DNA of 64,000 nt from positions 155,981 through 219,980 of the forward strand of contig JACPSJ010000001.1 in assembly GCA_016193315.1 (NCBI GenBank), read 5' to 3'. Shown here one piece after another: positions 19,980 through 59,811 of the stretch. A model generated the notes under the pieces. The model ran no database searches, was not told the origin of the DNA, and was given only the letters and a program-made list of their open reading frames with translations. Within the stretch, counting starts at the first letter, position 1; the number at the start of each line of letters is the position of its first letter. The DNA is from Candidatus Kerfeldbacteria bacterium. Its GTDB lineage: Bacteria; Patescibacteriota; Patescibacteriia; SBBC01; CAIJZX01. The translations under genes and the position numbers were made by a program.

Positions 19980-22319
19980 GTGCGAAACCGTCAACCACGC
20001 CTGCCACCTCCAAAGAATGATTCGCGTGGTCGTCCCCCGACCATACTTGTCGTGTTTGGCGCGACAGGTGACTTGATGGCGCGCAAGCTGATTCCCGCTC
20101 TTCGACACATGTTCACTAGTAAAAGCCTGCCCGAACGGGTCACCGTGGTTAGCACATCTCGGCTAGCAATGAATGATGGCGCCTTCCGCCTTCATGTCCG
20201 CGAAGCACTCTTGAAGTCCGGCAACGCACAAGCCGTTGATGAGCAGTTTCTCAACTTGTTTCAGTACCTCCCCGGAGATTTTTCCTCCCCGGAATTTTAC
20301 CAAGCCCTTAAGGTAAAACTTGATCAGGTGGATATTGACTGGGGCGTTTGTACGAACAAACTCTTTTATTTTGCGGTTCCGCCAAATGCGTACGCGGTCC
20401 TGTTCCAAGGACTGGCGCGGGTTCGCCTCAATGAACCGTGCAGCTCGGCCACCGGCTGGACGCGGATCCTCGTTGAGAAACCGTACGGGTCAACGCTGCC
20501 AGAAGCGGAAACAATCAACGCGCTGTTGGAAAAACATTTTCGGCCCGAGCAAGTGTATCGGATCGATCATTACCTAGGCAAGCAAGCCGTTCAGAATATT
20601 CTTTCGTTCCGCTTTTCTAACACCTTTCTTGAGCCGTCATGGAGCCGGGAGTTCGTTGAGCGGGTCGAGGTTCGGATTCACGAAAAGATAACGATCGAAG
20701 GTCGCGGTGCGTTCTACGACCAGGTTGGTGCACTGCTGGACGTCGGACAGAATCACGCGCTTCAGCTCTTGGCGCTGGTGGCCATGGAACACCCATCGAG
20801 CTTGAACGCCAACGTCATTTGGCAAAAGCGCACCGAAATCCTAGAGGCGTTGCGGCCGGTTACTGACTCAGCGGCGCAAACATTTCGGGCGCAGTACGAA
20901 GGGTATCGGGAGCAACCTGGCGTCGCGACAGATTCGACGACCGAAACGTTTTTCCGCGTCACCACTACGCTCGATCATCCCCGCTGGCGCGGCGTTCCGA
21001 TTATTATCGAGGGCGGAAAGAATCTGCCCGCGGACGACAAGCAGGTGATCGTCACGTTCAAACACCCCACCCCATGTCTGTGTCCGCCGGGGCAACACTA
21101 CCAGACCAAGGCCCACTTTCGCTTAGCCCCTAACCCGGGTGTAGCTATTCAGTTTTGGTCGCGCAAGTCAGGCTCTACGACCGAGCTTCAAGAACGGTGG
21201 CTCACGTTTGATTATCCAGCAGATGAGCAACAACGGTACCTGGCTGAGTATGCCCAGTTATTGTCTGAGGCGATCATGGGAAACCAGCTCCTGTTCATTT
21301 CCGGTCGTGAAGCCTTGGCGAGTTGGCGTTTTGTTGATCCGATCCGTCAAGCGTGGAAAACGATGGGGCGACCACAAACGTACGCGCCGCAAACGCTACC
21401 CAACACTCCGACAGTCCCAGCCAAAGAAAAAGTTCAGACGATCGGTATGGTAGGTTTGGGCAAAATGGGGCTCAACTTAAGTTTGCGTTTGGCGGAGAAG
21501 CGGTGGAGCGTGGCTGGATTTGATCCGCAAGCGAAATCTGTTCAAGGCGTCAGTGTCGTTGACTCACTGTCGAGTCTCGTCGAACAACTTCCGTCTCCAA
21601 AGGTGGTCTGGTTGATGGTCCCGCATCAAGTAGTTGATCAAACGCTTTTCGGTAAAGTCGGACTCGCGTCCTTACTCCATAAGGGCGACATCGTGATTGA
21701 TGGTGGTAACTCGTATTACCGAGACTCGATCCGGCGAGCGAAGAAACTAAGCATCAAAGGAATCAAGTTTATTGATGTCGGCGTTTCGGGTGGCCCCGGC
21801 GGAGCTCGTTACGGACCGTCGTTGATGGTTGGCGGACAGCGACAGGATGTCGAGCAGGTCGAGCATCTGTTTCTTGACCTCGCCTTGTCGGACGGTTACC
21901 AATTCTTTCCAGGTCACGGTGCCGGACACTTTGTGAAGATGGTCCACAACGGGATCGAGTATGGCATGATGCAGGCGGTTGCCGAAGGGTTCACGATCCT
22001 CAAAAAATCTTCATTCAAGCTGGACCTTGCCAAGGTTGCCGAGGTCTATAACCACGGGAGCGTCATTGAATCGCGGCTGATGGAGTGGCTACGCCGTGGC
22101 CTCGTACTACACGGCCCGGATTTCAAGGGAGTGAGCGGAACTGTAGCCCATACGGGCGAAGGCGAGTGGACTGTAAAAACCGCGAAAGCCTTAAAAGTCC
22201 AGACTAAGATTATTGAGGCATCGCTCCAATTCCGGAAACTGTCAGCAAAAAAACCTTCATACACTGCAAAAATTCTTTCAGCTCTTCGTGAACAATTTGG
22301 TGGACACGCCTCACGCTAA
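19980..22319 (+). CDS. zwf: Fusion protein: glucose-6-phosphate 1-dehydrogenase (N-terminal ~470 aa) plus 6-phosphogluconate-dehydrogenase-like NAD(P)-binding domain (C-terminal ~300 aa)
   Basis: G6PD motifs GATGDLMARK and RIDHYLGKQ; C-terminal domain GMVGLGKMGLNLSLRL and 6PGDH-like DGGNSYYRD...GVSGG blocks; single 779-aa ORF. Confidence 0.7.
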   Translation: MRNRQPRLPPPKNDSRGRPPTILVVFGATGDLMARKLIPALRHMFTSKSLPERVTVVSTSRLAMNDGAFRLHVREALLKSGNAQAVDEQFLNLFQYLPGDFSSPEFYQALKVKLDQVDIDWGVCTNKLFYFAVPPNAYAVLFQGLARVRLNEPCSSATGWTRILVEKPYGSTLPEAETINALLEKHFRPEQVYRIDHYLGKQAVQNILSFRFSNTFLEPSWSREFVERVEVRIHEKITIEGRGAFYDQVGALLDVGQNHALQLLALVAMEHPSSLNANVIWQKRTEILEALRPVTDSAAQTFRAQYEGYREQPGVATDSTTETFFRVTTTLDHPRWRGVPIIIEGGKNLPADDKQVIVTFKHPTPCLCPPGQHYQTKAHFRLAPNPGVAIQFWSRKSGSTTELQERWLTFDYPADEQQRYLAEYAQLLSEAIMGNQLLFISGREALASWRFVDPIRQAWKTMGRPQTYAPQTLPNTPTVPAKEKVQTIGMVGLGKMGLNLSLRLAEKRWSVAGFDPQAKSVQGVSVVDSLSSLVEQLPSPKVVWLMVPHQVVDQTLFGKVGLASLLHKGDIVIDGGNSYYRDSIRRAKKLSIKGIKFIDVGVSGGPGGARYGPSLMVGGQRQDVEQVEHLFLDLALSDGYQFFPGHGAGHFVKMVHNGIEYGMMQAVAEGFTILKKSSFKLDLAKVAEVYNHGSVIESRLMEWLRRGLVLHGPDFKGVSGTVAHTGEGEWTVKTAKALKVQTKIIEASLQFRKLSAKKPSYTAKILSALREQFGGHASR

Positions 22320-23806: not shown

Positions 23807-24523
23807 ATGACCGGCAAAGTCATTATTATTCGTGGACCTCTCGGTGTCGGGAAGTCGACCATCGGTCGGCATTTGGCGGCCGACCTTTCAAGTCTCTACG
23901 TCCCCCTCGACGATGTCTTAGCGGATCATGGGCTTGATCGCGTCCCGGCGGATGCCGAGTGTATTCCGGCCGAAAACTTTCTGCTAGTCCTTCGTAGTCT
24001 GCTTCCGAAATTACAACAGACTGTCGCGGCGGGGCAAAGCGTGGTTGTTGATGCTTGTTTCTACCATCGAGAGATGATTCAGTTCCTGGACACACACTTC
24101 CCCGGGCAGACAGCTGTGTTTACTCTCAGTGCTCCCGTCGAGATTTGCATTGCCCGTGACCGGGAACGGAGTAAGAGTCATGGCGAAGATGCTGCTCGGG
24201 CTGTTCATGACCTGGTTTCCAGATTTACAGCCGGCAAAAAAATTGACGCCACGAAATCCAAAAAGTCTATTCTCCAGGAGATCATGAAGAATCTTGCCCG
24301 CGGGGCCTGGAGGGCATATGAACGCCGCTGGCCACCCCAACCCACGGCGGATATTTCTGAAAATGAAAACGACCCGCCCGCAAAAAGCAAGAGTTTCACC
24401 CGGCCAATGAAAAAACGACCAGCCGAGAGGTTGGTCGTGGTGCCACCGGAGGAAGCCCGCCCGCCTCAGCGGATGACAGCCAGCTTGCCGGTGGCAATGA
24501 ACGAATCGAGTTGGAGTCGGTAG
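23807..24523 (+). CDS. P-loop NTPase / AAA-domain kinase-like protein
   Basis: Start moved to ATG 23807; Walker A GPLGVGKST; ~239 aa; acidic C-terminus. Confidence 0.5.
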   Translation: MTGKVIIIRGPLGVGKSTIGRHLAADLSSLYVPLDDVLADHGLDRVPADAECIPAENFLLVLRSLLPKLQQTVAAGQSVVVDACFYHREMIQFLDTHFPGQTAVFTLSAPVEICIARDRERSKSHGEDAARAVHDLVSRFTAGKKIDATKSKKSILQEIMKNLARGAWRAYERRWPPQPTADISENENDPPAKSKSFTRPMKKRPAERLVVVPPEEARPPQRMTASLPVAMNESSWSR

Positions 24524-25005
24524 AGGTAGATACCGACGGCGACGGACCGCCCGGACTCATCGCGGAGGTCCCAGTTCGTCCGATAGACGCCGGCGTGGAG
24601 CGGGCCGTGGACCAGCCGTTTCTGCCGCCGGCCCTGGAGGTCGAAAATCTCGAGCGAGGCGCGGGCTTCCTGTGCTGCGCCGAACTCGATAGTCAGCGAT
24701 CCGCGCGCCGGATTCGGCTGGGCTTGTCCGAGGAAATCGACCATCGTCACCCGCGGCCGGTCATTGACGTCGAGGAGCTGGTGGACGTTGCCCGCCCAGA
24801 AGCCGTGTTCGACGATCGTGCTGCCGCCCGGGGCCATGCTGATGCCGGAGATGACGTCGCCGACATTGCCATTGATCTCGTAGATGCCGCTGGCCATCAG
24901 TTGACCGCCGGCGGAGAAGAGGGATTTGGGCTGCACCGTTTGCGCGCTCGCTGTCGAAGCAGCCAGGAAGGCAGCGATGATGAGCGTGAAGACTCTGGTT
25001 TTCAT
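24466..25005 (-). CDS. Small secreted protein with T9SS (Por) C-terminal sorting domain
   Basis: Signal peptide; C-terminal ~80 aa matches Por_Secre_tail pattern (NPARGSLTIEF...LEIFDLQGRR...GVYRTNWD...GIYLYRLQ). Confidence 0.6.
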   Translation of the reverse strand: MKTRVFTLIIAAFLAASTASAQTVQPKSLFSAGGQLMASGIYEINGNVGDVISGISMAPGGSTIVEHGFWAGNVHQLLDVNDRPRVTMVDFLGQAQPNPARGSLTIEFGAAQEARASLEIFDLQGRRQKRLVHGPLHAGVYRTNWDLRDESGRSVAVGIYLYRLQLDSFIATGKLAVIR

Positions 25006-25024
25006 TGGAGCACCTCCTTACTGG

Positions 25025-25951
25025 TCACTGCTTTACCCAGACTTCGAGTTCAGTAGCCGATGAACCACTTGGATATGCCGCACCACAGAACTCAATCTGA
25101 CACTCTGGGTTTGGAGGTTGTTCTACTCCGTTGCAGGTGTATCCATAAGGGAAGTAGCTGTATCCAAGGTCCATCTGCTCATTGATGAACAGGTTGGGCC
25201 CGCCTCCAAAGCATGGCCCGCTGTTAATGTTGTGGTAGACGGACCAAGAACGAAGTTCTCCACCCTGTGAGTATTTCTTGTTGGACGTCAGGGAGAAAAT
25301 GAAGTTGTGTCCGTACGGCCGTAAACAACCGCCGGCGCAACTGCTCGTCCAAGCGATGTCGGTATAACCACCGATGGTGTATCCATTCACCAATTGCACG
25401 ACGGTCAGCGATGGACCGCGGTTGTCACAGAGATTATGAAACGTCGTCGGGCTGGCTCCGTTCACGCTCTTTCGATAGCACAGCGTCCAGGTCTGGAACA
25501 CATTGCCAACCCAGGAATTGACCTGAAATTGCTGTGCCGGTGTAAGGATTGTGCTCCCAGGAAACGGCTGTTCGGGGATACTGACAAGCCGTTCCGCAAC
25601 ACCCGCTCGCACCGCATACGGCACGCTGCCGATCTTCGTCCGTGGCGTGAGTTCCGTTCCGCCGTTGACGCTAATACCTAGCCAACGAACCGATCCATCC
25701 CAGACGCTCTGGTCCGGATTGAGGTTGAGGTGGTAGACGCCGTTCCGGACGCTGACACCGGCGAAGGTCTCGCTGTACAGCGCTGAACCACCAGTAGAAT
25801 CGGCGTAGACGCTGATCGTGAGGTCTCTGCTGCCCATGACTAGCGACCCACTCTCCGACAACTGTCCGGAGTATGGGATTTGAAGGGGGACGGCGAGGGT
25901 GATCACCGGGAGTAAGAGCCCCAGCAATGCCATTAAGATTGTGCGCTTCAT
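25025..25951 (-). CDS. Secreted protein, paralog 1 of a tandem family (conserved N-terminal IPYSGQLSE...NLNPDQSVWDGSVRWLGISVNGG..TPRTKIGSVPYAVRAG module; Cys-rich divergent C-terminal domain)
   Basis: Signal peptide; ~110-aa module shared with the next three genes at >70% identity (DNA-level repeat also visible). Confidence 0.6.
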   Translation of the reverse strand: MKRTILMALLGLLLPVITLAVPLQIPYSGQLSESGSLVMGSRDLTISVYADSTGGSALYSETFAGVSVRNGVYHLNLNPDQSVWDGSVRWLGISVNGGTELTPRTKIGSVPYAVRAGVAERLVSIPEQPFPGSTILTPAQQFQVNSWVGNVFQTWTLCYRKSVNGASPTTFHNLCDNRGPSLTVVQLVNGYTIGGYTDIAWTSSCAGGCLRPYGHNFIFSLTSNKKYSQGGELRSWSVYHNINSGPCFGGGPNLFINEQMDLGYSYFPYGYTCNGVEQPPNPECQIEFCGAAYPSGSSATELEVWVKQ

Positions 25952-25969
25952 TACCGACCTCCTTACAAT

Positions 25970-26758
25970 CTACTGGTAGCGGTTGGGGAACCACATCGCA
26001 AACATGCTGCGATAGGTGATTTTCACGGTTCCCGTAGGACAGAACAGCGAGGCCATGAGGTAGAACGTCCGCGGGCCAGCGTTCACCTGGTAGGACCCTG
26101 TCATGGCCAATGGAACGTAGGTCACCCCCGGCCCAGTAACGGCAGTATGGAAATCGCCGTTTAGGTTTGGGGGGTTATCCGTCAATATGAGGTTGAGGCA
26201 ACCTGCGTCGGTCAGCCAACACAGTCCCCCTGTGTGGACCATGACATACCCATCCTCTGGGCAGTTGATGGAGATGCTGTCAACAGCCGTCCATTGCGTT
26301 TGCGTGATAGTAAGAATGGTTGTGGTGTTAACCATCCAGTTCAGACCGGGCGCGATGGCCGGATTCGTCAGAGCATCCGCATGCGATGCCACGCCCGCCC
26401 GCACCGCATACGGCACCGTGCCGACCTTGGTCCTAGGCGTGAGTTCGGCTCCGCCGTTGACGCTAATACCTAGCCAACGAACCGATCCGTCCCAGACGCT
26501 CTGGTCCGGGTTGAGGTTGAGGTGGTAGATGCCGTTTTGGACGGTCGCGCCCGCGAAGGTTTCGGCGTAGACTGGTGATCCACCGACTGAATCGGCATAG
26601 ATGTTGATGGTGAGGTCCCGTGTCCCATTCACGAGTTGCCCATTCTCCGACAGCTGACCGGAGTATGGGATTTGAAGGGGGACGGCGAGGGTGAGGGTTG
26701 GGACGAGGAGTCCCAGCAGAACTGCGAGGTACATCCGTTTCATTGTTTCCTCCTTCAT
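25970..26758 (-). CDS. Secreted protein, paralog 2 of tandem family (same N-terminal module, different C-terminal domain)
   Basis: As above. Confidence 0.6.
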   Translation of the reverse strand: MKEETMKRMYLAVLLGLLVPTLTLAVPLQIPYSGQLSENGQLVNGTRDLTINIYADSVGGSPVYAETFAGATVQNGIYHLNLNPDQSVWDGSVRWLGISVNGGAELTPRTKVGTVPYAVRAGVASHADALTNPAIAPGLNWMVNTTTILTITQTQWTAVDSISINCPEDGYVMVHTGGLCWLTDAGCLNLILTDNPPNLNGDFHTAVTGPGVTYVPLAMTGSYQVNAGPRTFYLMASLFCPTGTVKITYRSMFAMWFPNRYQ

Positions 26759-26782
26759 GGTGAGCTTGTCGAACCATGCTAC

Positions 26783-27610
26783 CTACTGGTAGCGGTTGGG
26801 GAACCACAAGACCTGTATAGCATGTCGGCGGTACCGGTAGTTCTGATCTGTCAAATTCTCTTTCTTCGCCCAAACCGAGATGGTGTGCGGTCCTTGGACA
26901 ATAGGCTGCATCTGGGCAATAGAAACTGGGATGTACTGCCAATCAATGCCAGACGATGCGGCCCCCAAAAGATAGCCACCATCAAAGTCGGACGGTGTTC
27001 CTTCTTGGATGCGCAATCTTCCGAGATACCTGGACGAGGCGTCGAGAATGACGCTTCCAGATGCGCTCATGAAGAGGAATCCATCAGCTGGGCAGGTCAC
27101 GGTGATCGAATCAACCACCACCCACAAGATTGATGTGACATCGAAAGCTCCTTGTTCTGATCCAGAGTACCTGAAGCTGGCTCCGGGCAAAAGTGGCGCG
27201 TTCGCGACAGCATCTGCAGTACCCGCCCGCACCGCATACGGCACGCTGCCGATTTTGGTGCGGGGTGTGAGTTCTGCTCCACCGTTGACTGACACCCCGA
27301 GCCACCGAACCGATCCATCCCAGACGCTCTGGTCTGGATTGAGGTTGAAGTGGTAGATGCCGTTCTGCAGATTGACTCTGGTGAAGGTTTCGGTGTAGAT
27401 CGCCGCGCCACCGGTTGAATCCGCGTAGACGGCGATGGTCAGGTCCCGTGAGCCAGTGACCAGCGTCCCGTTCTCCGACAGCTGGCCGGAGTACGGAATA
27501 CCATTCGGAACCGCTCCTACAGCTGAAGGAAAACAGAACAGCAAAAGCACGGGTACCACCGACTTCATGAGTTTCATCAGCATTCCCCTTTTCGTGTTGT
27601 CAAGGAGCAA
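26783..27610 (-). CDS. Secreted protein, paralog 3 of tandem family
   Basis: As above. Confidence 0.6.
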   Translation of the reverse strand: MLLDNTKRGMLMKLMKSVVPVLLLFCFPSAVGAVPNGIPYSGQLSENGTLVTGSRDLTIAVYADSTGGAAIYTETFTRVNLQNGIYHFNLNPDQSVWDGSVRWLGVSVNGGAELTPRTKIGSVPYAVRAGTADAVANAPLLPGASFRYSGSEQGAFDVTSILWVVVDSITVTCPADGFLFMSASGSVILDASSRYLGRLRIQEGTPSDFDGGYLLGAASSGIDWQYIPVSIAQMQPIVQGPHTISVWAKKENLTDQNYRYRRHAIQVLWFPNRYQ

Positions 27611-27623
27611 CAGCAGGAATCTG

Positions 27624-28040
27624 CTAGCTCCTGGACAGCGTGTCCCAAAGCACTCTCAACCTACCCTTCTCAAATAATATGTCAAGGGATGGTACAATCA
27701 TTTCATGGCTGGTGTCATACCTGAAAAGGTCAATCAAGAACAGCGGCGAGCCACCGTTGACTGAGATAGCTAGCCAACGATCCGAGCCGTCCCACACTGT
27801 CGTTGAGACGTTAAGCATCACGTGGTAGACGCCGTTGACGACGTTGAGCACGTCATCTTGGCTGTACACCGGCGAACCACCTGCAGGCACGGGATAGATT
27901 CGGAACGTGAAACTGCGCGTCCCGTTGACGAGTTGCCCGTTTTCGGTCAGTTGCCCGGAGTACGGGACTTGGGTGGGGACGGCGAATACAACTGCCGGTC
28001 CGGACAACAGCAACAACGCGAACATGAGCTTGCGAACCAT
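27624..28040 (-). CDS. Secreted protein, paralog 4 (short; N-terminal module only plus short tail)
   Basis: 138 aa; signal peptide; module VPTQVPYSGQLTENGQLVNGTRSFTFRIY... Confidence 0.5.
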   Translation of the reverse strand: MVRKLMFALLLLSGPAVVFAVPTQVPYSGQLTENGQLVNGTRSFTFRIYPVPAGGSPVYSQDDVLNVVNGVYHVMLNVSTTVWDGSDRWLAISVNGGSPLFLIDLFRYDTSHEMIVPSLDILFEKGRLRVLWDTLSRS

Positions 28041-28490
28041 GACTGTCTCCTTGTCCCGCTCAGCGGGACGTTGAAGGGTTGTTTCTCTACCGATCTGTCA
28101 AAGAACCACCAGATCGGATGGATCACGACTTGCTACAATGGCCCTACCCTACAAGTGCCTGGTGGTCGTGTCAAGCAAAACACAGCGGGCCTGGTCCGGC
28201 GGCGGAAAATCCCCAGGCGCGGTTGTCGTATACTCCAAACTAGTCGGCACTTCGCAACGAGAGAGCGACCGATCGGCAATTGAGCTGCAGTCAGAACAAA
28301 CACCTCCTGGCAGAACAAGCGGAAGAACAAGAGGAGCATATTAATCCTTCCTAAACCCTTGCTGATCTGAGCGAGAGCGTTTTTTGCATCTTGCTCCCGT
28401 GCGAACTGGGTCAGACGTGGTCTCGAAACTTGGCTTTTGAAGCAAATCATGTTATAATGAATGAAGAATTGAAAAAAAACAAAACATCGC

Positions 28491-50376: not shown

Positions 50377-53300
50377 GCTGGTGGCTTTTTCTGTTCACAT
50401 GGCGTTTGACAATGAACGAATGATTCGCTTGAATGGCGGGGCTGCGCCTAGCCCCGGATGGGTGCTGTTCCGCGTCCAAGTCCACGTCTCGGTCTGGCAA
50501 GGCATTCTTTGGGGCCCCGCGCCATTCAAGGTGCGGGGCGTTTTCTTGACATCAATCCATCCGGGTGGTTCTCTGTGACAGCGGTGACTAGGTTTGGCGC
50601 GCCGTCGAAGTCATGTCCGGCCACAGCCAAGCAATCGCAGCGTTCTCTCCGGAGCCCCGATGATGAAATCGGGGCTGTTTCTTGACATTCTCGAAATCCT
50701 TCTGTACATTGCTGTCGCTCACCTGGCAGGGTTTCCACCCGTTGACCACGCTCCGCAACGTTGGCGACAGCCACGACGACGTGCGGCCGGGACCGCTATT
50801 CTTTGGGGCCCCGATCAATCTGTCGGGGCTGTTTTTCTTGACAGACCGTCAGGTGTCATGTAAAAAAGTCTTCATCTTCGGTCAGCGCTGTCGCTTGGAT
50901 CGCCAACCTTGCGTCGGGCGCGCTGCGCCTAAGCCGACAGTGCCCAGCCTAGCTCCTCTCTGGATCCCGATCACTCACCTGGTCGGGATGTTTTTCTTGA
51001 CTAGCCCACGTACTCGTGGTACATAGCTGTCGATTGTATCCATTGCGGATGGGTGCGGACAGGTAGCCCGCGGCATAACAGGCCCAGCCAAGCCCGGGTC
51101 AGCCATTGTGGTCTTTGGGTCCCGATCTGACAACAGGTCGGGACATCTTTTTATTGACACGGGAACAGCCTAACGATATAGTACGGCGAACTCGGTTAGG
51201 TCCGGCTGCCTATGCCATGCTTCGCCCAAGCAAGCACCGGCCCCGCATCGACCGCCGTGCCAAGCCGTTCTCCGGATCCTCCGTCTCTGACGGAGGATAT
51301 TTCTTGACATGAAACTGTTCTCTTGTTAAAGCGGGGCTGGCTCCTTGCCCAGGTCAGGTGACGCCAGTTGCGCCGGGCTCAGCTGTCCCGGTACAGCCAA
51401 CGGCCAGCATTGCCGCCGCCAGCACAGGCATGTCTATCTTTCCTTCGGGTCCCGATCGCGCTAGATCGGGACTCTTCGCTTGACTTTTTTAAAAACTTTA
51501 GTATAAAATTATTGCGTTTCTCGCGGCTGTGTTCGCCCGGCCGAGCTAAGGAGTTGACAGCTCCGGCACGCTGCTGAACGGTAGGCTCCTCTTTGGGCCC
51601 CGCATCATTCTCGGAATGGCGTGGGGCTGTTTTCTTGACAACCATTGCTCGGACAGGTACTTTCCACTGCGCTCCGCGCGACGGGACATTTTCTTGACAA
51701 ACAGGCCGGGGTGTCCTAGGTTGTCTCGCGAACCACCTGGCCCGCCTGCGCGAGACAGGCAGCGCCGACGCAGGGTACTGATTGACTGGCCGTGGTGTAC
51801 TTGCGAGTTCTATGGGGCCCCGTCTGGTATTACCGAGCGGGGCCGTTTTTTTGACGAACCAAGACGAAACGAATATAGTGTTCGAGTCGTTTTCCGGCCA
51901 GGCCTGGTTGGGATAGCCACCCCATCCAGCGCCATGCCTCCCCGTGTCAGGGATAGGCCAGCACCTCTCCGGGCCCCGATCACGTTGATCGGGACTGTTT
52001 TCTTGACAGGGTGTGTATTTGCTCCTACCCTTAGCCAACGCCCCACGCCGACCTAGTCTGACGACAGCAAGGGTCAAGCAGACTATCACGCCGCAGGCCA
52101 CTTCAGGCTCCGGGTCCCGATCTGACAACAGGCCGGGACTTTTTTCTTGACAACTTTTGATATTGCACCTATCGTCTCGCCAGACAGTATTGCCGTACGG
52201 CACTGTTCGTCTAGCAACGGCACCGCTTCCCAACGAAGACCTAGCTAGCCTACGGGTCCCGGTCTGAAAACAGGTCGGGACGTTTTATTGACGAAAAAGG
52301 GATAAACAACTAAGGTGTCGAAGTTCTATCCGGCCAGGTACGCCGGGCACAGGCGGCCAGCGGAAAGCCACCGTCAGCCCCCGCTCGCCAACGTCCGTCG
52401 CGCTCCGCACAGCCCGTCTCTGGGTCCTCCGCCTCTGGCGGAGGACGTTTTTCTTGACGCGAATGGGAAGTCGGTGATACGGTGCGCCTTGCGTTGGCAA
52501 AACCCGGCTGACCATCGTTGGGCATCGTATGTTCCTCACCGCCGGACAAGCGCGTCAAACGCCAGGCAACTCTTTGGGTCCCGATTCTCACGACTCGGGA
52601 CTATTTATTGACACAGATTATTAACTCGAGTAGGCTCGCGGGAGTATCACGGCTGGGCGATACTTCCAACGCACCCGCATCCCGATCAGTGTCATGCTCC
52701 TCTGTGGGTCCCGGCCGCTATACGTTGCCGGGACATTTTCTTGACGCGCATACACCATTTTGCTAGTTTGCGCATTGGATTGGCTGGCCATGTTAAGGTC
52801 GGGCCCGACAGAGTGCCGCCAGCTGCGCAAGAGCATGCCCTACTATGGGTCCCGGTTCTGATGAATCGGGACTTTTTCTTGACATGCGCTCAATCCTCGC
52901 TTAGGGTGAAACGCGCCTCATGCAGTCCAGGCGAGGTCCGCTTTGGCTGAGTAAGGCATGAATGGCCTAGGTGCGGTTGGCTGCTCTACGGGTCCCGATT
53001 CTCACGACTCGGGACATTTTCTCGACACGACTTTTTCGATAATGTACTTTCTGACAACTTGGCCCGCCGGGCATTGGATGAGTAGGCCATGGCATCCTTC
53101 GGTCCACTTCGGGGCTCCCGCAAACACGGGAGCCGATTTTTTCTTGACTCTTGTTGGTTGATCAAGTAACTTGCCTATCGTCAAGTTTCACGGCTCGGTG
53201 AGGATAGCTCCGCACTGCCTAGCCGGAGCGCCGTCAGGTGACGTTCGCTTGGGATAGCTTTGGAGGCGGGACGCCAGTCTCGCCTTTTTGCTTGACAAGT

Positions 53301-53575
53301 TTCGATCGCAACCCTAAAGTTTCAGCTCTCGCCTCGCTCCGGTTCTGTGTGACAGGGCCAAGTACCGCAGCACGAACCTCTCTTTGGGGCTCCCCCATCA
53401 TGATGGGAGCCTTTTGTTTGACAATCTCATCCGGTAGGGTCTAAGTTCACACAGTACGCAGGGCCTCGGATAGCCGCGGAGCCCATTTCCTTCCCGTGTT
53501 TCGGCTAGGCCAGCCGTTCTAAGGGTCCCGACTTCATCGGTCGGGACTTATTCTTGCTTGACAAAATTGTGCATC
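50340..53575 (+). repeat. Array part 1: ~23 tandem promoter-body-terminator minigene units (~135-175 bp each). Unit = TTGACA -35 / 17 bp / TAnnnT -10 in variable region, ~70-100-nt variable GC-rich body, conserved tail (..CCTAGG..TCTTTGGG + GC hairpin of conserved structure but variable/covarying sequence + T4-6) directly abutting next TTGACA
   Basis: Read directly: -35 boxes at 50406, 50546, 50681, 50838, 50996, 51164, 51304, 51479, 51645, 51693, 51850, 52003, 52147, 52287, 52453, 52608, 52741, 52878, 53021, 53144, 53292, 53427, 53568; each followed at 17+-1 bp by TAnnnT (TACATT, TAAAAA, TACATA, TATAGT, TAAAGC, TATAAA, TATCGT, TAAGGT..). Confidence 0.7.
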
Positions 53576-53684
53576 TCCGTTAAGGCTGGTGTACGCTCCT
53601 TCCAATCCATCACTGGACTATCGGATCCGAAGGCGCGCTTCGTCCACGCTGTTTGCCTCTTCACCACATCTTTGGAGGCTCACC

Positions 53685-55532
53685 GTGAAGCGTCAGAAGC
53701 CGCGGCCACCATTGCCGCGCAAGCTCAACCTGCTGGAGTATTTTCCGTACCATCTGTACCCAGTCATGCGACCGAATCAGCGGCTTGGTCTCGAGACTAT
53801 TGAGGCCAACGACGGATTGGCGACCCTCGAAGCGCCGACCGGCAGCGGCAAGATGGCCATCGGCTACACCTTCCTCAAGGCGCTGGCCGCTCAGCGCCTG
53901 GGGCCGCTGTTCTACATCGTGCCGACGAAGACGCAGGTCGACCAACTCGTCCGGTACCACCCGGATCTCATCCCGGTCTACGGGCGGAACGAGCACGACT
54001 GTCTGTATTACCCGGACCTGTCGCTGAAGGCGGATGAAATTCCAACCGTCCTCTGCCCAGGCTGCGATCACTTCGTCAACCAGGAGACCGGCGCCGTCAA
54101 CGTACCCGGCGTCGTGCCCTGTCCGTACTACCTCCAGAAGTACCAGGCGAAGCAGGCGCCGATCGTCGTCTGCACCATGGCCTTCTACCTCTTCACCCAG
54201 CTCTTCTCGCAGGAGTGGGAGGAGCCGGCCGGCCTGGTCATCGATGAAGCGCACCAGTTCCCCCGGGTCGTCCGTAACTGCCTCAGCTACGAGATTACCG
54301 ACTACCACTTGTGGCGGTCGGCCGACCTCTTGGCGGAGATCGACGGCGTCGCCGCGCACCAACTGCGGGACTTCGGCCGGAAGATGATTTCGATCATCAA
54401 GCGGAAGCCAGCCGGGCAGGGAACGCTGCTCAAGGACGAGGAGATCATTCAGCTTATCGAGCTGCTCGACGTCATCGACGCCGGGGCGGTCGAACGCGCC
54501 CTCAGCCGGGCCATTCGGCAGGGGCTGATCGACGTCAAGCAGGACCGCGAGACGTTGAAGCAGCTGGAGACGATCGTTCGCGACCTGCGGCGGTACCTCC
54601 ACACCCTCGAGTACTCGCTGCCGACGAAGCAGCGGCACGCCCTGAACTACACCTACGGCTTCTACGAGGAGGAGATGGGGCCGAACGACAAGGCTCAGTA
54701 CCGTCTGGTCATCAAGGCGCACTACGTCGCGCCGATTATCGCCAAGATCCTGAGCCCGCGGACGGTGGCGTATTCGGCCACCATCGGCGATCCGCCGATC
54801 TTCCAGGGCGAGACGGGTATCCGCGCCGACGTCTTCGAGTTCGGTTCGGAATTCTCTCATCTGAAGACGCGGGTGTTCATGCCGACGGACACTAAGAACC
54901 TGGCCTTCAACACCCGGGGTCGACAGGATGTTACCCGGACGCTGCGGCTGGTGGCCAAAGCGGCCCGTCGCTTCGCCCAACGGGGTCACCGCTCTCTGGT
55001 GGTGATCGTGTCGGAGAAGGAGCGGCAGAAGTTCTTGACCCTGGCCGAGGAGGAGCGGCTGAAGGTCCTGAGCTACGGGAATGGGTCACCCGCTAAGACA
55101 GTGGCAGCCCGGTTTCTTGGCGGTGAAGGAGATTGCCTGGTCGGCACCACCGCCCAGTACGGCGAGGGGATCGATTTGCCACGGCAGTCGGCGCCGGTCA
55201 TCTTTATGCTCCGGCCTGGCTACCCGCATCCGGACGATCCGGGCACGCAGTTCGAGGAGCGGCGCTTCAGCACCGGGCAGGTCTGGGCCATCCGCCAGTG
55301 GCGGGTGATGATGGAAGCGCTCCAGGTGCGGGGCCGGAACATCCGTTCCAGCGACGACCTCGGCGTAACCTTCTTCATGTCCCAGCAGTTCCGGAAGTTC
55401 CTGCGCAGCAGCCTGCCGAAGTGGCTCGAGCGGGCCTACCGCAACACCCGCACCTTTGACCAGTGCGTCGAGGAGACGATGGAGTTGTTGAGCCGAGGCG
55501 ATCGAGGTCTGACGGCTGGAATACAGCAGTGA
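53685..55532 (+). CDS. DinG/XPD/Rad3-family superfamily-2 DNA helicase with FeS-cluster cysteines (type IV CRISPR Csf4-like size)
   Basis: Start GTG 53685 after GGAGG; Walker A-like TGSGKM, DEAH box (VIDEAHQF), four Cys (HDCLYY, CPGCDHF, CPYY) in FeS insertion, C-terminal helicase motifs (GTTAQYGEGIDLP); expressed from the -35/-10 of the last array-1 unit and terminated by first array-2 hairpin. Confidence 0.8.
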   Translation: MKRQKPRPPLPRKLNLLEYFPYHLYPVMRPNQRLGLETIEANDGLATLEAPTGSGKMAIGYTFLKALAAQRLGPLFYIVPTKTQVDQLVRYHPDLIPVYGRNEHDCLYYPDLSLKADEIPTVLCPGCDHFVNQETGAVNVPGVVPCPYYLQKYQAKQAPIVVCTMAFYLFTQLFSQEWEEPAGLVIDEAHQFPRVVRNCLSYEITDYHLWRSADLLAEIDGVAAHQLRDFGRKMISIIKRKPAGQGTLLKDEEIIQLIELLDVIDAGAVERALSRAIRQGLIDVKQDRETLKQLETIVRDLRRYLHTLEYSLPTKQRHALNYTYGFYEEEMGPNDKAQYRLVIKAHYVAPIIAKILSPRTVAYSATIGDPPIFQGETGIRADVFEFGSEFSHLKTRVFMPTDTKNLAFNTRGRQDVTRTLRLVAKAARRFAQRGHRSLVVIVSEKERQKFLTLAEEERLKVLSYGNGSPAKTVAARFLGGEGDCLVGTTAQYGEGIDLPRQSAPVIFMLRPGYPHPDDPGTQFEERRFSTGQVWAIRQWRVMMEALQVRGRNIRSSDDLGVTFFMSQQFRKFLRSSLPKWLERAYRNTRTFDQCVEETMELLSRGDRGLTAGIQQ

Positions 55533-55559: not shown

Positions 55560-58500
55560 CAAGTGTAGGCAACCCCCAGGCAAGAAAGAGTGCTCTCTGG
55601 GACCCCCGATCGAATGATCGGGGGTCGTTTTCTTGACAGGTGTTGAGCTTATCATTAACCTGCAGCCGCTAGCTACGGACCGGCTAGGAACGGTGGGCCA
55701 CGTTTTGGCTGAGTCCGGACGGCCGGACCCAGGTCGCCTAGAGTGTTCTATGGGGCCCCGATCATTTGGTCGGGGTCGTTTTTTGACTTCCTCCAAGGTT
55801 GGGTGTAGGGTCTTCCAATCCGCCAGCCTTCGGCAGGTAACGGTAGTTCTGGGTAGCCAGTCCTGTGGCACGGGCTCCAACGCGCGGATGGGATCGCCTT
55901 GGTTTTGCATGGTTTGTCTCGCTCCGGGTCCTCCGCCTTTGGTGGAGGACTTCTTTCTTGACATAAAGCAACCAAGCGAGTAGGAAGTTGATACCGGAGT
56001 GGTACGCGCCGCCCCGGAAAGCTAGGCTCTTTGGCGGTATGCCACGCTGGCCTGCACTGCGGGACCTCATTCGGAAGAATGAGGTCGTTTTTCTTGACAT
56101 GCCCACGAAATAATTCTAGTGTGCGAGCGCCGCGCCTAGGAATTCTTTGGAGCCCCGTTCGCAAGAACGGGGCTGCTTTCTTGACACGACCTATTTTTTC
56201 CTGTAAGACCTTTTGCACCCGGTGCTGAATCCAATGCACTGGTGCGCCATCGCGCGGCAGCCGCATCAATCGGCACGCTGGGCTACGCTTCGGGACGGTG
56301 ACTCACCATGGTCGCCGTCTTTTTTCTTGACACGACGAATGCAATGCAATAGGCTTGCCCAGCAGTATTCCCGCTGCGGACAGCCATGACCCGCACCGTT
56401 CCGCTAGGCTGCGGTCAGCCGTTCTTTGGAGCTCCGTTCGCAAGAATGGGGTCAATTTCTTGACAAACTGCCTGATTCAGTTAGCCTACCCAATCACCAG
56501 AAGTCCCATCCTCAGCCTTGGTGTCCCGTGACAACCATCGCTATGGTTGGGCCTGGTCCGGAGGGCCGTCCTTTGGAGCCCCGTTCGTCAGAGCGGGGCT
56601 TTTTCTTGACTGCCGTTATTACTTTTGATAGGGTCGGCCGACACGCCTAGGCTTGCCTTGGTTAACCAAGCACCGCCGTCGTCGGCCACCCCAGCGCCAT
56701 CTTCGGAGCCCCTGATCATTCGATCGGGGGCGTTTTTCTTGACTCTCGCTGGATCATCCTGTACAACGTCCAAACCAGGTGTGCCTGACCTGCCAGGACC
56801 ATGCCTGTGTGGGCCTTGGAATGCACGGCCATACTCTGGGGCCAGCTCGTCTTTACGCGAGTTGGCCTACTTCTTGACAGCGTGAAAGCATTACTCTAGT
56901 TTTCAGCCATTCCATGCGCCTCGGATAGCTGCGCTATCGCGCGATGCGTAGCGGAACGGACTGGTGGAGTAGTCATTGGTTCTCTGTGGGGTCCCATCAG
57001 TCGGTGGGGGCTTCTTCTTGACTGAACGAAAAATACGCTGATAGATTCTGTCGACCCGCCAGGGAAAGCAAAGCCGCGGAATTCCTCGGATCGCCGCGCC
57101 TCGCCTGCCTGTGCCATGACAGCCTGATCTTCGGTGCCTCATCCATCCGGGTGGGGCATGTTTCATGACATCCCCTGGGGAGAGAGAATAATCTTGGTTG
57201 TCCACGCGCCTCGGAAAGCTTTCCTAATGGCGATACGTAATTGAACTGATTTCGTGGTTGTAAGTGGCTATCCTTGGTTTCCCGACGTAATGTGGGGCTT
57301 TCTCCTTGACCAGAACACTCAATTGTCTGTAATTTTCCAATCCTCGGAAAACCATGGTCCGGCGGGCCTGTCTCTGCCTGCGTCAGCCTCGCTCTTCCAG
57401 GCTTAGCCTCGCTTTGGGTCCTCCGTCGCTGACGGAGGACATTTTCTATTGCGATTGCTTGACAAATCCGGGGATGACGATTAGGTTGCCGACACTAGGC
57501 TGGCCCGGCTTTCCTAGGGCAAGTCGGCCTGTCCCGGAGCATCCGGCGGACAGCTCAGCATAGCCATTCTTTGGATCCCACGCAACCGCGGTGGGACTTT
57601 TCTTGACTTTCCGAGGGCCCCGTTCTAAAGTGCCGCGGCTGGATCAAGGCTCGGATAGGCCTCCTTGGCCCCGCAAAGCCTAGGAACCTCTGGCCGCGGA
57701 CGGCCCCGGACAGGATCTCCCTCCCGTTCTTTGGGTCCCCATCAGCCATGGTGGGGATGCTTTCTTGACCGACGAAAATGGATTTGCTAGTTTCTTGCGG
57801 CCATATGGTTAGGCCGGGAACGGCGGCCATCGGTGTTCCAAGCACCGCCTTGGCCAGGCTCGCCTTGCTCCACTTCGGGACCCTGCAGAAATGCGGGGTC
57901 ATTTTCTTGACCTTCTGAAGTTCGAAGCTTATGTCCGTCTGACGTGGTATGGTCGGCTTGGCTAGCGCTGCGTGTCCCTCGCCAGACTCCCCATCGCCAT
58001 CCCTGCTCTAGGCGTCGTGTTCTCCGGAGCCCCGTTCGAAAGAGCGGGGCTGCTTTCTTGACATCGCCCACACCGGGATGTACGGTCGAATGACGCGATG
58101 ATGAACTGTGCCAAGCCAGTCATCGGCCCGCCAGCGCGAGACGCCCCGCCCTTTGCTGCGCAATGCCTCCGCTCTCTATGGGGTCCGTTCGGCAGAACGG
58201 ATCTGTTTCTTGACAGCGTGTGAATTTGGCCGTAGATTTTTTTTGCTTAGGCCGTGGTTCATGATTGTCTTTGTAAGCGGAAACCAGCCCAGGCTAGGTG
58301 TCCCCAGCACTGGCATGGTCGGCTTGCAAGTGGCCAACCACGCCCTGGATGTCTACGGGCCCAGCCCGTGTTTCTGAATCATGACGGGCTGGGCTTTTTT
58401 CATGAGCTTCATCCGGGAACGCAATCTACTGACAAACCAACACGGTTCGGCTAATTTGTCTTGGCATCAGGCGGTTTTTTCGTCAGCCTTAGTGTCGCGT

Positions 58501-59060
58501 GATAACCATCGGTCTGGTTGGGTCTGTTCCGGAGGGCTGTACTTCGGGGCCTCGCTCCACATGAGCGAGGCTGCTTCTTGACGCTAAGTTCATCTCATGA
58601 TAAACACCCGGTCGTCGCAGTCGGCGCCTTGAAACTCATAGTACTCCCGGAACGCCAGCGATCGCCGCAGTGCGGAATTCCAGACCACCGCATCCCCAGC
58701 CGCCGCACGCTCCGTCAGACTTTGGGCCCGACCGCGCAAGCGCGTCGGGCATTTTTCTTGACTAGTTTCATGCTCTGTAGTAGGTTCGTCGGTGTCCGCC
58801 ATGCCCACGCCAGTTTCGGAATGGTATCCTCCCGCCAGTCGCGGCAGTCTGTGGCCCGCTCTGGAGTCCCGATGGTAACACCGCCTTGGGACTTTTCTTG
58901 ACGCCCTGCTCATTCGTTGATAAGAGTATGATGGTTCTGAAATTGATTTCTCGGAATCGACCCGGCAGGCCCAGGATTCCCGAGTCTCGCCATCCCAGCC
59001 ACACCCCAGCTCCTCTTCGGGGCCCCGCCAGCCATCGCGGGGCCATCTTCTTGACAAAAC
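55560..59060 (+). repeat. Array part 2: ~24 further promoter-body-terminator minigene units of the same family
   Basis: -35 boxes at 55633, 55782, 55959, 56095, 56181, 56328, 56460, 56605, 56739, 56873, 57018, 57165 (ATGACA), 57306, 57459, 57603, 57764, 57906, 58058, 58209, ~58398 (degenerate), 58578, 58758, 58898, 59050; same TCTTTGG-hairpin-Tn tails. Confidence 0.7.
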
Positions 59061-59166
59061 CAGGGCGGTTTTGCTAAGGTCGCGGATCGCCTTTTGTTTG
59101 GGCGAACCTGGCTACGCAGGACGCGTGGCAGCTGTACCATCCAATTCTTTGGAAAGGGGCCACCCA

Positions 59167-59811
59167 ATGGCCAACAAGCGGAAGCGCGTCACCGTCCGGT
59201 GCGTCGGGATCGAGCCGATCCTCTTCAACGCCATTCCCGAAGGCCTGCTCATGGACCTGCTGAAGGGCAAGAGCCGGCCGAAGGTGAAGGGCGACGACGT
59301 CGACCTCGACAAGATCTGCGAGGACAAGCTCTACGTCGACGACGACGGCACGCCGTGCATCCCGCGGCTGAACATGTTCGCCGCCCTGAAGTACGCCGGC
59401 AAGTTCGTCAAGGCCGGCAAGAAGAACATCACCGGTGGTGACTCGACCCAGCTGCCGTCGATCCTGACGGTCGAGGGAACGCTGTTCCGTCTCGACAACG
59501 GGACGGCGAACGGCAAGCCGGAGTGGAAGATGGATCTCCGCGCCGGCCGTCACCGCCAGGGCACCTCGAAGGTCATGGTCGCCCTCGTTCGGCCCCGCTT
59601 CGACCGCTGGGGCTTCACCGCCACGGTCTCCTGCGCCGACGACGACGCCACGATCAAGACGGTCAAGCAGCTGTTCTGGGAGGCCGGCGACAAGGCTGGT
59701 CTCGGCGACTACCGCCCCTCGTCGGGCGGCTTCTACGGCCGCTTCCGGCCGGTGGGCTTCACCGTCGAGGACATGGTCGAGGAGACCGAGTTCGCGGCGG
59801 CCGTGGCCTAG
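59167..59811 (+). CDS. Basic ~214-aa protein, paralog A (array-associated); C-terminal glycine-rich loop GLGDYRPSSGGFYGRF reminiscent of RAMP (Cas5/Cas6-type) G-rich loops - tentative
   Basis: ATG 59167 after AAAGGGG; driven by last array promoter (TTGACA 59050); N-terminus RKRVTVRCVGIEPILFN shared with paralog B. Confidence 0.55.
   Translation: MANKRKRVTVRCVGIEPILFNAIPEGLLMDLLKGKSRPKVKGDDVDLDKICEDKLYVDDDGTPCIPRLNMFAALKYAGKFVKAGKKNITGGDSTQLPSILTVEGTLFRLDNGTANGKPEWKMDLRAGRHRQGTSKVMVALVRPRFDRWGFTATVSCADDDATIKTVKQLFWEAGDKAGLGDYRPSSGGFYGRFRPVGFTVEDMVEETEFAAAVA

Follow-up and report, generated by a model that had tools for sequence, protein, structure and literature searches.

At positions 25025–28040 of the DNA considered here, a run of small genes for secreted proteins begins with much the same sequence in every copy and ends in more than one way, and the question is what a bacterium would do with such a set. 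The host, Candidatus Kerfeldbacteria, is a tiny groundwater CPR bacterium, and the stretch of its DNA that was analysed, referred to below as the window, is 64 kb long. Beyond type IV pili, little is known of host recognition and attachment in CPR/Patescibacteria. The reading that we prefer, with a probability of roughly 55%, is that the array encodes short surface proteins, probably trimeric, that bind through exchangeable tips. Their N-terminal module (N-module) would be a distant relative of the base of the mosaic adhesive trimer (MAT) fibres with which Bdellovibrio bacteriovorus recognizes and binds its prey, and a further protein, E, would be their partner.

Gene order and the common N-module

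The layout is as the first-pass annotation had described it: four tandem ORFs on the same strand, each with a hydrophobic N-terminal leader followed by a common module. Together with E, the ORFs of the window give the operon-like order D (a probable remnant), C, B, A and E on the minus strand, to which all coordinates below refer, with 13–24 nt between the array genes and no ORF in between. Gene D (27624–28040; 138 aa, MBI2984195.1) encodes a signal peptide and the first ~82 aa of the N-module, followed by an unrelated tail. Gene C (26783–27577; HYY50_01040, protein P0153), with 264 aa from the ATG at 27577 as against a mechanical ORF start at the TTG at 27610, comprises a signal peptide, the N-module, a linker and a B/C-type C-terminal domain ending in WFPNRYQ. 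Gene B (25970–26743; 257 aa, MBI2984193.1) combines a signal peptide, the N-module and a disordered linker with a B/C-type C-terminal β-domain, a predicted jelly roll, and gene A (25025–25951; 308 aa, MBI2984192.1, named 'TLD domain-containing protein' at NCBI) combines a signal peptide and the N-module with a TLDc domain containing eight Cys residues. Gene E (24466–25005; 179 aa) lies directly downstream of A. In A–C and E we see no motif that would anchor them, be it a transmembrane segment, LPXTG or a lipobox. Housekeeping and two-component genes surround the array, and phage or mobile genes are absent from this neighbourhood; a look for inverted repeats or invertible elements turned up nothing meaningful.

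The N-module, of ~100 aa, directly follows the signal peptide and is common to A (25589–25894), B (26381–26686) and C (27209–27514), with a partial copy in D (27741–27983). The motif quoted for it in the first-pass annotation is present in the copies, and the E-values between array copies, from 1e-26 to 1e-59 (tblastn), are far beyond chance. The DNA identity of ~85–90% over ~300 bp claimed at the same time was too high: we measured 83% for A–B and 77% for A–C (ungapped, 300 nt), with ~90% being reached only within a core of ~120 nt, and the copy in D is 70–77% identical over 122 nt. Five Logan contigs match the window at 100% identity; four end at 25683–25687, inside the near-identical A/B core, which is an assembly break at a repeat. 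When the module of B was modelled alone with AF2, a six-strand β-sandwich was obtained (pLDDT 85.2, pTM 0.76). Neither a module-profile sequence search nor Foldseek gave a significant PDB match for the N-module, the latter returning only generic Ig-like sandwiches for the module alone (best E 0.011).

No homologue came up when the 105-aa module alone was used in a word-indexed search, so that an exhaustive profile search was needed, and this returned a family of 33,489 clusters at E ≤ 1e-3, with ~3,000 close relatives at E ≤ 1e-10; there is no Pfam model for this family, to which the MAT N-domain also appears to belong. The module nearly always occupies residues ~20–120 of proteins that are 130–1500 aa long. 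The family is spread over CPR, Planctomycetota, Margulisiibacteriota and lineages of Bacteroidota and Acidobacteriota, and is organized again and again as tandem, tip-swapped arrays. Its fusion partners include Peptidase_S74, collagen repeats and Phage_GPD, all three of which are typical trimer formers. The sole library match to the N-module is the NCBIfam model Bdello_MAT_N (NF053851), which is matched by C with E 7.6e-8 (32.3 bits), by A with E 1.3e-6 (28.3 bits) and, at the borderline, by B with E 0.0099 (15.7 bits), the curated cutoff being 60; 10 of 27 family members match it, with a best E of 5.3e-12. Judging from these HMM scores, all of which lie below the curated cutoff, the N-module appears to be distantly related to the N-domain of the MAT fibres.

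The alignment of D to the module ends at ...SVNGGSPL, ~82 aa in, and no C-terminal domain follows, so that of the four paralogs with swapped C-terminal domains proposed in the first-pass annotation all four carry the module and D lacks a domain to swap. The last ~38 codons of D run through a promoter-like site (TTGACA-N16-TAGGTT, 27658–27685) and a leader hairpin that both precede C, with the stop codon of D lying within this hairpin; D is probably a truncated remnant. Its module is nearest to that of protein P0004 (69%), not to those of A, B or C. After the hairpin, GGAGCTAGCAG-ATTC-CTGCTGTTGCTCC (27604–27631), come TTGACAACACG and the ribosome-binding site of C. The promoter-like motif upstream of C also precedes the first array gene in three related loci (L001, L004 and L005), the leaders of which contain an analogous hairpin with another stem sequence and then the same TTGACAA motif. 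A second promoter-like site, TTGACA-N17-TAGGGT (28146–28174), lies upstream of D. No Rfam family corresponds to the conserved leader.

C-terminal domains and their probable exchange

The C-terminal domains had been thought to differ completely, and this is true of A compared with B and C (BLASTP E 1.7), but not of B compared with C, the C-terminal halves of which are 26% identical over 143 columns (E 1e-14) and share the terminal WFPNRYQ. Homologous C-termini are what the first-pass annotation itself had named as evidence against domain swapping, and for the B/C pair they are found, so that simple tandem duplication accounts for part of the array. The domain of A, described earlier as Cys-rich and lectin-like, proved instead to be a TLDc domain: residues 133–281 score 62 bits with TLD (PF07534), where the gathering score is 24.5 (E 8.5e-17). 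A also reaches 78 bits with PEP_CTERM_TLD_A (NF038124), below the cutoff of 100, and a PEP-CTERM tail is absent from A, which ends in ...ELEVWVKQ. To our knowledge, TLDc has not been established as a domain of adhesins. The AF2 model of B (pLDDT 84.8) contains globular β-domains at residues 25–107 and 133–253, joined by a disordered linker of ~14 residues (112–125) with a pLDDT below 50. The tip of B resembles Pgp3, ExsFA, phage tail-fibre, C1q and TNF proteins in Foldseek comparisons, with modest matches (E 1e-5 to 1e-7, TM about 0.35–0.56), and a PDB sequence search with B found nothing; the B/C-type C-terminal domain is predicted from the model to be a TNF/C1q-like jelly roll.

That one conserved N-module is joined to unrelated C-termini was borne out both in the window, where TLDc stands against the jelly roll, and in the family, where, of the 33,489 clusters, the best 150 module matches were compared by what follows the module: their C-terminal remainders, 144 of them long enough for the comparison, fall into 50 unrelated groups. 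Comparing module and C-terminus separately, module identity is 79–83% within the window and 63–69% to proteins with corresponding C-termini elsewhere. The C-termini of C and protein P0005 are 56% identical, with modules only 63% identical, and the TLDc domains of A and protein P0003 are 51% identical, with modules only 69% identical; protein P0002, with 83% module identity to A, has yet another C-terminus. Similarly, the first 104 nt of B together with its ribosome-binding site are 88% identical to those of P0014, a gene on another metagenome contig (L005) with a C-terminus unrelated to that of B. Nucleotide identity drops immediately past VPYAVRAG, where the disordered linker is predicted. 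Since the modules are more alike within the genome than between proteins with matching C-termini, either tip swapping or gene conversion is indicated.

Homogenization of the N-module within a genome is supported by the higher module identity inside the window than outside it, but for gene conversion, which the first-pass annotation had suggested as the force behind it, the synonymous-site evidence of recent events in the window is weak: it is suggestive for A–B (Fisher, p = 0.055) and not for A–C and B–C (p values of 0.31 and 0.80 for these pairs).

Some of these observations would be expected if the genes were nothing more than tandem copies of a structural protein of the cell envelope, of the S-layer-like or matrix kind, with old divergence and one domain accretion in place of specificity switching, the N-module being conserved simply as a structural core. 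B and C are homologous over their full length, the module has a dN/dS of ~0.2 and a dS of 0.6–0.8 among the window copies, which are not recent given this dS and fit long-term purifying selection, the heterogeneity of synonymous changes is not significant, and one related locus, L013, contains three tandem genes of the same B/C type. However, N-module and C-terminal similarities disagree between genomes; such a history also sits poorly with unrelated 3' domains on genes with nearly identical 5' ends, with 50 C-terminal groups on one module and with the number and type of module genes, which differ in every related locus. We consider structural duplicates, and with them a purely structural role of the module, to be unlikely, at about one chance in five.

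Protein E, the related loci and the T9SS question

The statement that the array adjoins a T9SS-CTD protein held up, as E matches TIGR04183 with 29 bits against a cutoff of 23; on Pfam, it reaches 23.1 with Por_Secre_tail (PF18962) and 25.5 with FlgD_ig, just under the gathering score of 27. E consists of a signal peptide, a conserved N-region of ~70 aa with the motif K-S-L-x-S-x-G-G ... H-G-F-W, and a T9SS type-A/FlgD-Ig-like C-terminal domain. In all eight related loci, one to four module genes of varying type are followed by E as the last gene, and in several genomes the loci adjoin different housekeeping genes. Narrow peptide-pattern scans yielded two loci in genome contigs, one in metagenome contigs and none in viral contigs.

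If the genome, or the donor of the locus, had an outer membrane and a T9SS, E could be a genuine T9SS substrate on which the module proteins ride or to which they attach. The score of E above the TIGR04183 cutoff, the matches of E homologues to Por_Secre_tail and FlgD_ig, and the labelling of one related MAG as Gammaproteobacteria would all suit such a cargo. On the other hand, two independent MAGs with the locus are named Candidatus Kerfeldbacteria, in one case on an 857-kb contig, A–C bear no CTD, the scanned neighbours included no T9SS component, and we found no literature report of a T9SS in Patescibacteria. We know of no outer membrane or T9SS in CPR bacteria, and because the present record belongs to Candidatus Kerfeldbacteria, the link to a T9SS is doubtful and genuine cargo is improbable, clearly more so than structural duplication.

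The first-pass annotation had also offered polymorphic toxins or effectors, in which the N-module would serve trafficking, the C-termini would be toxins and the downstream genes immunity proteins. A conserved N-terminus, variable C-termini and tandem cassettes do resemble such loci in layout, but the C-termini are TLDc and jelly-roll domains with no toxin domain found by Pfam, NCBIfam or PADLOC, small cytoplasmic immunity-like ORFs are absent from the gaps of 13–24 nt, E itself has a signal peptide, and PADLOC and PHROGs were without result, so that this option is rejected as very improbable. A defence-system reading was likewise rejected, with Pfam, PHROGs, PADLOC and the neighbours giving no support. 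Remnants of a prophage or tailocin receptor-binding module, to which the likeness of the B tip to phage tail-fibre and minor-tail protein folds and the fusion of distant family members to Phage_GPD or Peptidase_S74 could point, are just as improbable and were rejected too, given genes with Sec signal peptides, no phage genes nearby, no significant PHROG match, no relative in the viral contig scan, and a locus kept beside different housekeeping genes in several genomes.

Proposed surface binding proteins and comparison with known systems

Surface binding proteins with exchangeable tips thus remain the reading that we favour. The proteins would be Sec-exported and composed of four parts: the signal peptide, the β-sandwich N-module of ~100 aa, a flexible linker of ~15–25 aa and an exchangeable C-terminal binding domain, namely TLDc for A and, for B and C, a predicted jelly roll of the TNF/C1q type. 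As a putative distant homologue of the N-terminal domain of the MAT fibres, with presumably the same role, the N-module may keep the protein attached to the cell surface, probably in trimeric form, and the variable tip of A–C may bind an external ligand, for example a host-cell or particle surface. Trimerization and surface display are suggested because the tip, in monomer predictions, resembles trimeric folds and because the fusion partners of the family are trimer formers. Recombination in or near the linker would create new specificities, with the N-modules being kept similar within one genome. From the conserved gene order, E may be secreted along with the module proteins and act as their partner, for instance by serving the N-module as an adaptor or base. 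The pairing of a T9SS-CTD-like protein with the array in a lineage without a known T9SS may point to the surface receptor of the N-domain. The locus offers a small recombining set of candidate secreted binding proteins with an apparently MAT-related N-domain, which is concrete and clonable.

A more far-reaching proposal, which we put forward only tentatively and think will probably prove wrong, is that an episymbiotic CPR bacterium recognizes its host or other surfaces with this array, which would be a minimal version of the MAT fibres without their stalk. Tips (jelly roll, TLDc and others) would be exchanged through recombination at the linker, E would dock the N-module on the envelope by means of a T9SS-type sorting domain re-used without a T9SS, and the conserved structured 5' leader would govern expression. 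If true, the host range of an uncultured CPR lineage would be predictable from its tip repertoire.

Among known systems, polymorphic toxin and contact-dependent effector cassettes share with the array a conserved N-terminus, variable C-termini and tandem genes, whereas the array has neither a toxin domain nor an immunity gene. E resembles T9SS cargo with a type-A sorting domain in passing TIGR04183, but it is found in a CPR genome, has only 179 aa with the conserved 70-aa region as its sole other part, and is strictly paired with module genes in the related loci. Secreted bacterial TLDc proteins (PF07534, NF038124) are comparable to A in carrying a C-terminal TLDc domain, although A lacks the PEP-CTERM anchor of the NF038124 proteins and has its TLDc domain fused to the N-module. 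The predicted jelly-roll fold of the B/C type is shared with the tips of phage tail fibres, collagen-like proteins, the Bacillus exosporium proteins ExsFA/BclA and Chlamydia Pgp3, which are trimeric, surface-exposed binding or capping domains; the array proteins differ in having no detectable sequence similarity to them (8–18% identity in structural alignments) and no collagen or coiled-coil stalk.

The closest comparison is with the MAT fibres (Caulton et al., 2024, PMC10769870), in which a signal peptide is directly followed by a conserved β-rich N-domain without a structural homologue in the PDB, and in which variable C-terminal tips are exchanged among multiple paralogues per genome, as in the array. 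MAT fibres have ~800–1150 aa with β-helix or β-prism stalks and an N-domain of ~130–160 aa, whereas the array proteins have 257–308 aa with a short linker only and a module of ~100 aa, and there is no S74 domain in the window. Furthermore, the host of the array is a CPR bacterium and not a predator, and its genes are in tandem and always followed by the partner gene E, for which the MATs have no described counterpart. The design of one front domain with different back domains is already known in kind, and is varied here.

Organization of the module array

Five tightly packed open reading frames, with intergenic gaps of 13–24 nt, occupy the minus strand at positions 24466–28040 of the window: gene D (27624–28040, 138 amino acids), gene C (26783–27610 as a mechanical ORF, with the annotated ATG start at 27577 giving 264 amino acids), gene B (25970–26758, annotated start 26743, 257 amino acids), gene A (25025–25951, 308 amino acids) and gene E (24466–25005, 179 amino acids). 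A, B, C and D each open with a hydrophobic leader ending in LA/VP, which is followed by the shared module; the module genes find one another by tblastn with E-values from 1e-26 to 1e-59, and no further copy was found by tblastn in the rest of the 64 kb. The NCBI annotation names A 'TLD domain-containing protein' and E 'T9SS type A sorting domain-containing protein', and leaves the other three module genes, B, C and D, as 'hypothetical'.

In its C-terminal half, A carries a TLDc domain (Pfam PF07534, 62 bits versus a gathering score of 24.5; NCBIfam PEP_CTERM_TLD_A, 78 bits, under the cutoff of 100), which has no similarity to the C-termini of B or C. B and C share a homologous C-terminal half (26% identity, E 1e-14) with the same last residues, WFPNRYQ, and the two proteins belong to a family of the same architecture with members of about 230–290 amino acids (alignment A3), neither half of which is covered by a Pfam model. 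The module of D breaks off after SVNGGSPL, the remaining ORF crosses a promoter-like site, TTGACA-N16-TAGGTT (27685–27658), and the leader hairpin upstream of C, within which its stop codon falls, and its nearest module is that of a relative from a different lineage (P0004, 69%); D is read as a truncated remnant. The first-pass annotation, which had described four tandem paralogues with completely different C-termini, thus reported a real feature but partly misdescribed it: the four tandem module copies stand, whereas the C-termini comprise two kinds of tip, TLDc and B/C, and one truncation. Its figure of 85–90% DNA identity over about 300 bp was somewhat high, as ungapped identity across the 300-nt module is 83% for A–B and 77% for A–C, and about 90% is attained only over about 120 nt in sliding windows.

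The MAG that contains the array, on a contig of 857 kb, is named Candidatus Kerfeldbacteria, a CPR/Patescibacteria lineage. The neighbours of the array encode a G6PD–6PGD fusion, a DEAD-box helicase and a kinase-like AAA protein, and further a divergent PAS-HAMP histidine kinase and two receiver proteins; no phage or mobile genes are found among them, the array has no PHROG or PADLOC matches and no notable inverted repeats were found. The first of these neighbours, a 779-amino-acid ORF on the plus strand (19980–22319), combines glucose-6-phosphate dehydrogenase (G6PD_N, G6PD_C) with the NAD-binding and C-terminal domain of a 6-phosphogluconate-dehydrogenase-like protein, an unusual fusion of both dehydrogenases of the oxidative pentose-phosphate pathway.

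The partner gene E and the leaders

The close subfamily occurs in eight independent loci, in all of which the last gene is a homologue of E (174–179 amino acids; 42–55% identity, measured for five loci). It is preceded by the D remnant, C, B and A in the window; by one B/C-type gene in a second Kerfeldbacteria MAG (L001), in a MAG labelled Gammaproteobacteria (L007) and in a metagenome contig (L015); and, in further metagenome contigs, by one TLDc-type gene (L004), a TLDc-type gene and a 346-amino-acid protein with another C-terminus (L005), three B/C-type genes (L013) or two (L014). Since E is constant and the genes flanking the array vary among the loci, the conserved unit is '1–4 module genes plus E', and E is a previously undescribed conserved partner gene. 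In the E protein a signal peptide precedes a conserved region of about 70 amino acids (K-S-L-x-S-x-G-G ... H-G-F-W), for which no family assignment was obtained, and a T9SS type-A/FlgD-Ig-like domain.

The module gene and E pair of L007 lies on a 477-kb contig labelled 'uncultured Gammaproteobacteria' (CAYNGY010000001.1) and adjoins a PIF1 helicase, as in L014; this may reflect a mistaken taxonomic label or a transfer of the locus. Downstream of E in three loci (L001:9603–12624, L004:2765–5156 and L005:3409–5323) are conserved genes for small membrane or secreted proteins, absent from the window, several of which end in QQVGGC or have CxxC-rich motifs; these are followed by YHS, DsbD_TM and AhpC/redoxin genes, and the set resembles a cluster for redox reactions or metal handling.

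In each array, the first module gene has TTGACA-N16/17-TAGG(T/G)T and a leader of about 110 nt in front of it (L001:7866–8000, L004:908–1082 and L005:585–710; 27584–27690 and 28041–28174 on the minus strand of the window). The leaders of L001, L004 and L005 are 91–95% identical, whereas the coding sequence behind them is only about 70–78% identical and the tip types differ; their hairpin, GAAGCAAGGCGA...TCGCCTCTGCTTC, precedes TTGACAAUACGG. Gene C also has a leader hairpin, but of another sequence, GGAGCTAGCAG...CTGCTGTTGCTCC, and TTGACAACACG comes after it. Folding z-scores lie between -1.6 and -3.8, and Rfam gave no match. The leader is a candidate for a cis-regulatory RNA or a site bound by a protein.

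Of the 18 occurrences of TTGACA-N16-18-TAGGNT (at most one mismatch) in the window, 15 fall within an RNA-gene array at 51.7–60.7 kb, which suggests that the -10 element of this organism departs from TATAAT toward TAGGNT. There, on the plus strand (50500–53600 and 55600–59100), about 45 units follow one another in tandem (period about 135–175 nt), each comprising a -35 element CTTGACA, a 17-nt spacer, a -10 element TAnnnT, a variable stretch of about 60–90 nt, the conserved motif YTCTYYGG, a GC-rich hairpin and a T-run abutting the next -35 element. The stems of the hairpins differ from unit to unit, with compensatory changes; terminator-like sites number 35, every one on the plus strand, against 10.8 ± 4.2 in shuffles, and promoter-like sites 12, against 2.6. 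The units, which have no Rfam match, look like dozens of separately transcribed RNAs of about 100 nt whose 5' part varies and whose 3' handle or terminator is conserved. Three plus-strand ORFs lie beside them (53589–55532, 59164–59811 and 59894–60532): a 647-amino-acid DinG/XPD helicase splits the array, matching PADLOC typeIV_DinG (CAS-IV-A associated) over almost the whole profile (E 4.9e-43), and beyond the units are two paralogous proteins of 212–215 amino acids with no family matches. This may be a putative type IV-like RNA-guided system with individually transcribed guides, and may be more novel than the module array.

Probable exchange of the C-terminal domains

Within the window the module copies are 79–83% identical, and comparison with relatives shows a mismatch between module and tip. 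The relative closest to C in its C-terminus (P0005) shares 56% identity there and only 63% in the module; A and P0003 are 51% identical in the TLDc domain and 69% in the module; and in P0002, from another sample, a module 83% identical to that of A goes with an unrelated C-terminus. B and P0014 of L005, which has the unrelated 346-amino-acid architecture, agree at 88% over the ribosome-binding site and the first 104 nt, and nucleotide identity drops from about 0.9 to about 0.4 just past VPYAVRAG, where the flexible linker is predicted. These mismatches, the 5'-end match and the drop in identity are explained by recombination at the linker or by gene conversion of the module.

Gene conversion of the module, as originally proposed, agrees with the mismatches between genomes, but the synonymous-site signal for it within the window is weak: module dS is 0.6–0.8 and dN 0.12–0.19, and an apparent low-dS core is marginal for A–B (p = 0.055) and absent for A–C and B–C. 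A and B are 98% identical across a 47-nt module core, and four of five metagenome contigs that are 100% identical to the window stop at 25683–25687, within the near-identical region of A and B.

Fold, family and likeness to known fibre proteins

The AlphaFold2 model of B (27 sequences, pLDDT 84.8) has two β domains, residues 25–107 and 133–253, joined by a disordered linker at 112–125 (pLDDT <50). Foldseek matched it in the PDB to Chlamydia Pgp3 (which has a TNF-like C-terminal domain), birnavirus VP2 and Bacillus exosporium ExsFA (E 4e-6 to 2e-5), and in BFVD to phage minor tail and tail-fibre, collagen-like, C1q and TNF proteins (E about 1e-7 to 1e-6). These modest but consistent fold matches point to a predicted jelly roll of the kind that caps trimeric fibres as the tip of B. 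The module alone is modelled as a six-stranded β-sandwich (pLDDT 85.2, pTM 0.76), with a best Foldseek E-value of 0.011 against the PDB, and its profile found nothing among PDB sequences.

When a profile from the four window copies was searched against 1.84 billion representative proteins, 33,489 clusters passed E ≤ 1e-3, of which 2,942 also passed E ≤ 1e-10; the module belongs to a very large unnamed family, with named sources including Kerfeldbacteria, Planctomycetes, Saprospiraceae, Pyrinomonadaceae and Margulisiibacteriota. It nearly always occupies residues ~20–120 of proteins of 130–1500 amino acids. Among the best 150 matches, the remainders after removal of the module form 50 unrelated BLAST groups, the B/C type being the second largest (29 members) and the TLDc type having two. 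In distant members the module is joined to Peptidase_S74, collagen triple-helix repeats or Phage_GPD, all of which work as trimers. A Planctomycetes MAG (JAFEBP010000001.1, 3714–8863) holds four tandem paralogues of 407–439 amino acids, 12–13 nt apart, with a common module, mosaic middle regions and a conserved C-terminal stretch of about 130 amino acids ending in VLVLVNLQ; genes for an ECF sigma factor and a Ser/Thr kinase precede them, and E is missing. This is an independent case in the same superfamily, and tandem mosaic arrays therefore recur in the module family.

For proteins with this established architecture, these homology relations and this conserved pairing with E, the evidence best fits a reading of A–C as short surface proteins, exported by Sec and probably trimeric, in which the shared N-domain would do the anchoring or assembly and the exchangeable tip would bind a ligand, while E would act as a dedicated partner; the likeness to the Bdellovibrio proteins discussed below and the types of fusion partner of the module suggest surface display, trimerization, binding of a ligand and the part played by E. 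That they are plain structural proteins is unlikely. A genuine T9SS link might be drawn from E, the domain of which passes the TIGR04183 cutoff, as that of no other protein in the 64-kb window does; it would require T9SS machinery, and neither an outer membrane nor a T9SS is known from CPR bacteria. The sorting-domain protein is nevertheless present in genomes named Candidatus Kerfeldbacteria. A polymorphic-toxin system, as first suggested, is rejected for want of any toxin or immunity content, and a prophage because phage context is absent and a scan of viral contigs found no relative.

Of the library models, only NCBIfam NF053851, called 'Bdello_MAT_N' after the mosaic adhesive trimer chimeric fibre protein, matches the module, with E-values of 7.6e-8 for C and 1.3e-6 for A (28–32 bits, under the cutoff of 60); ten of 27 relatives match it as well (best E 5.3e-12). 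The 21 Bdellovibrio MAT proteins (Caulton et al., 2024; PMC10769870) have a conserved β-rich domain of about 130 amino acids directly behind the signal peptide, a long trimeric stalk and C-terminal tips swapped among paralogues; according to that paper, the PDB contains no structural homologue of their N-domain, which presumably binds some cell-surface element. Given these matches and the shared lack of a PDB counterpart, distant homology of the module to the MAT N-domain is likely, although its membership of the Bdellovibrio MAT family is not established and the long trimeric stalk clearly has no equivalent in the window proteins. Searches of the literature turned up no description of such arrays in CPR bacteria. 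The array is a compact CPR-borne variant of the chimeric fibre/adhesin design known from the Bdellovibrio MAT proteins, and the CPR form is new.
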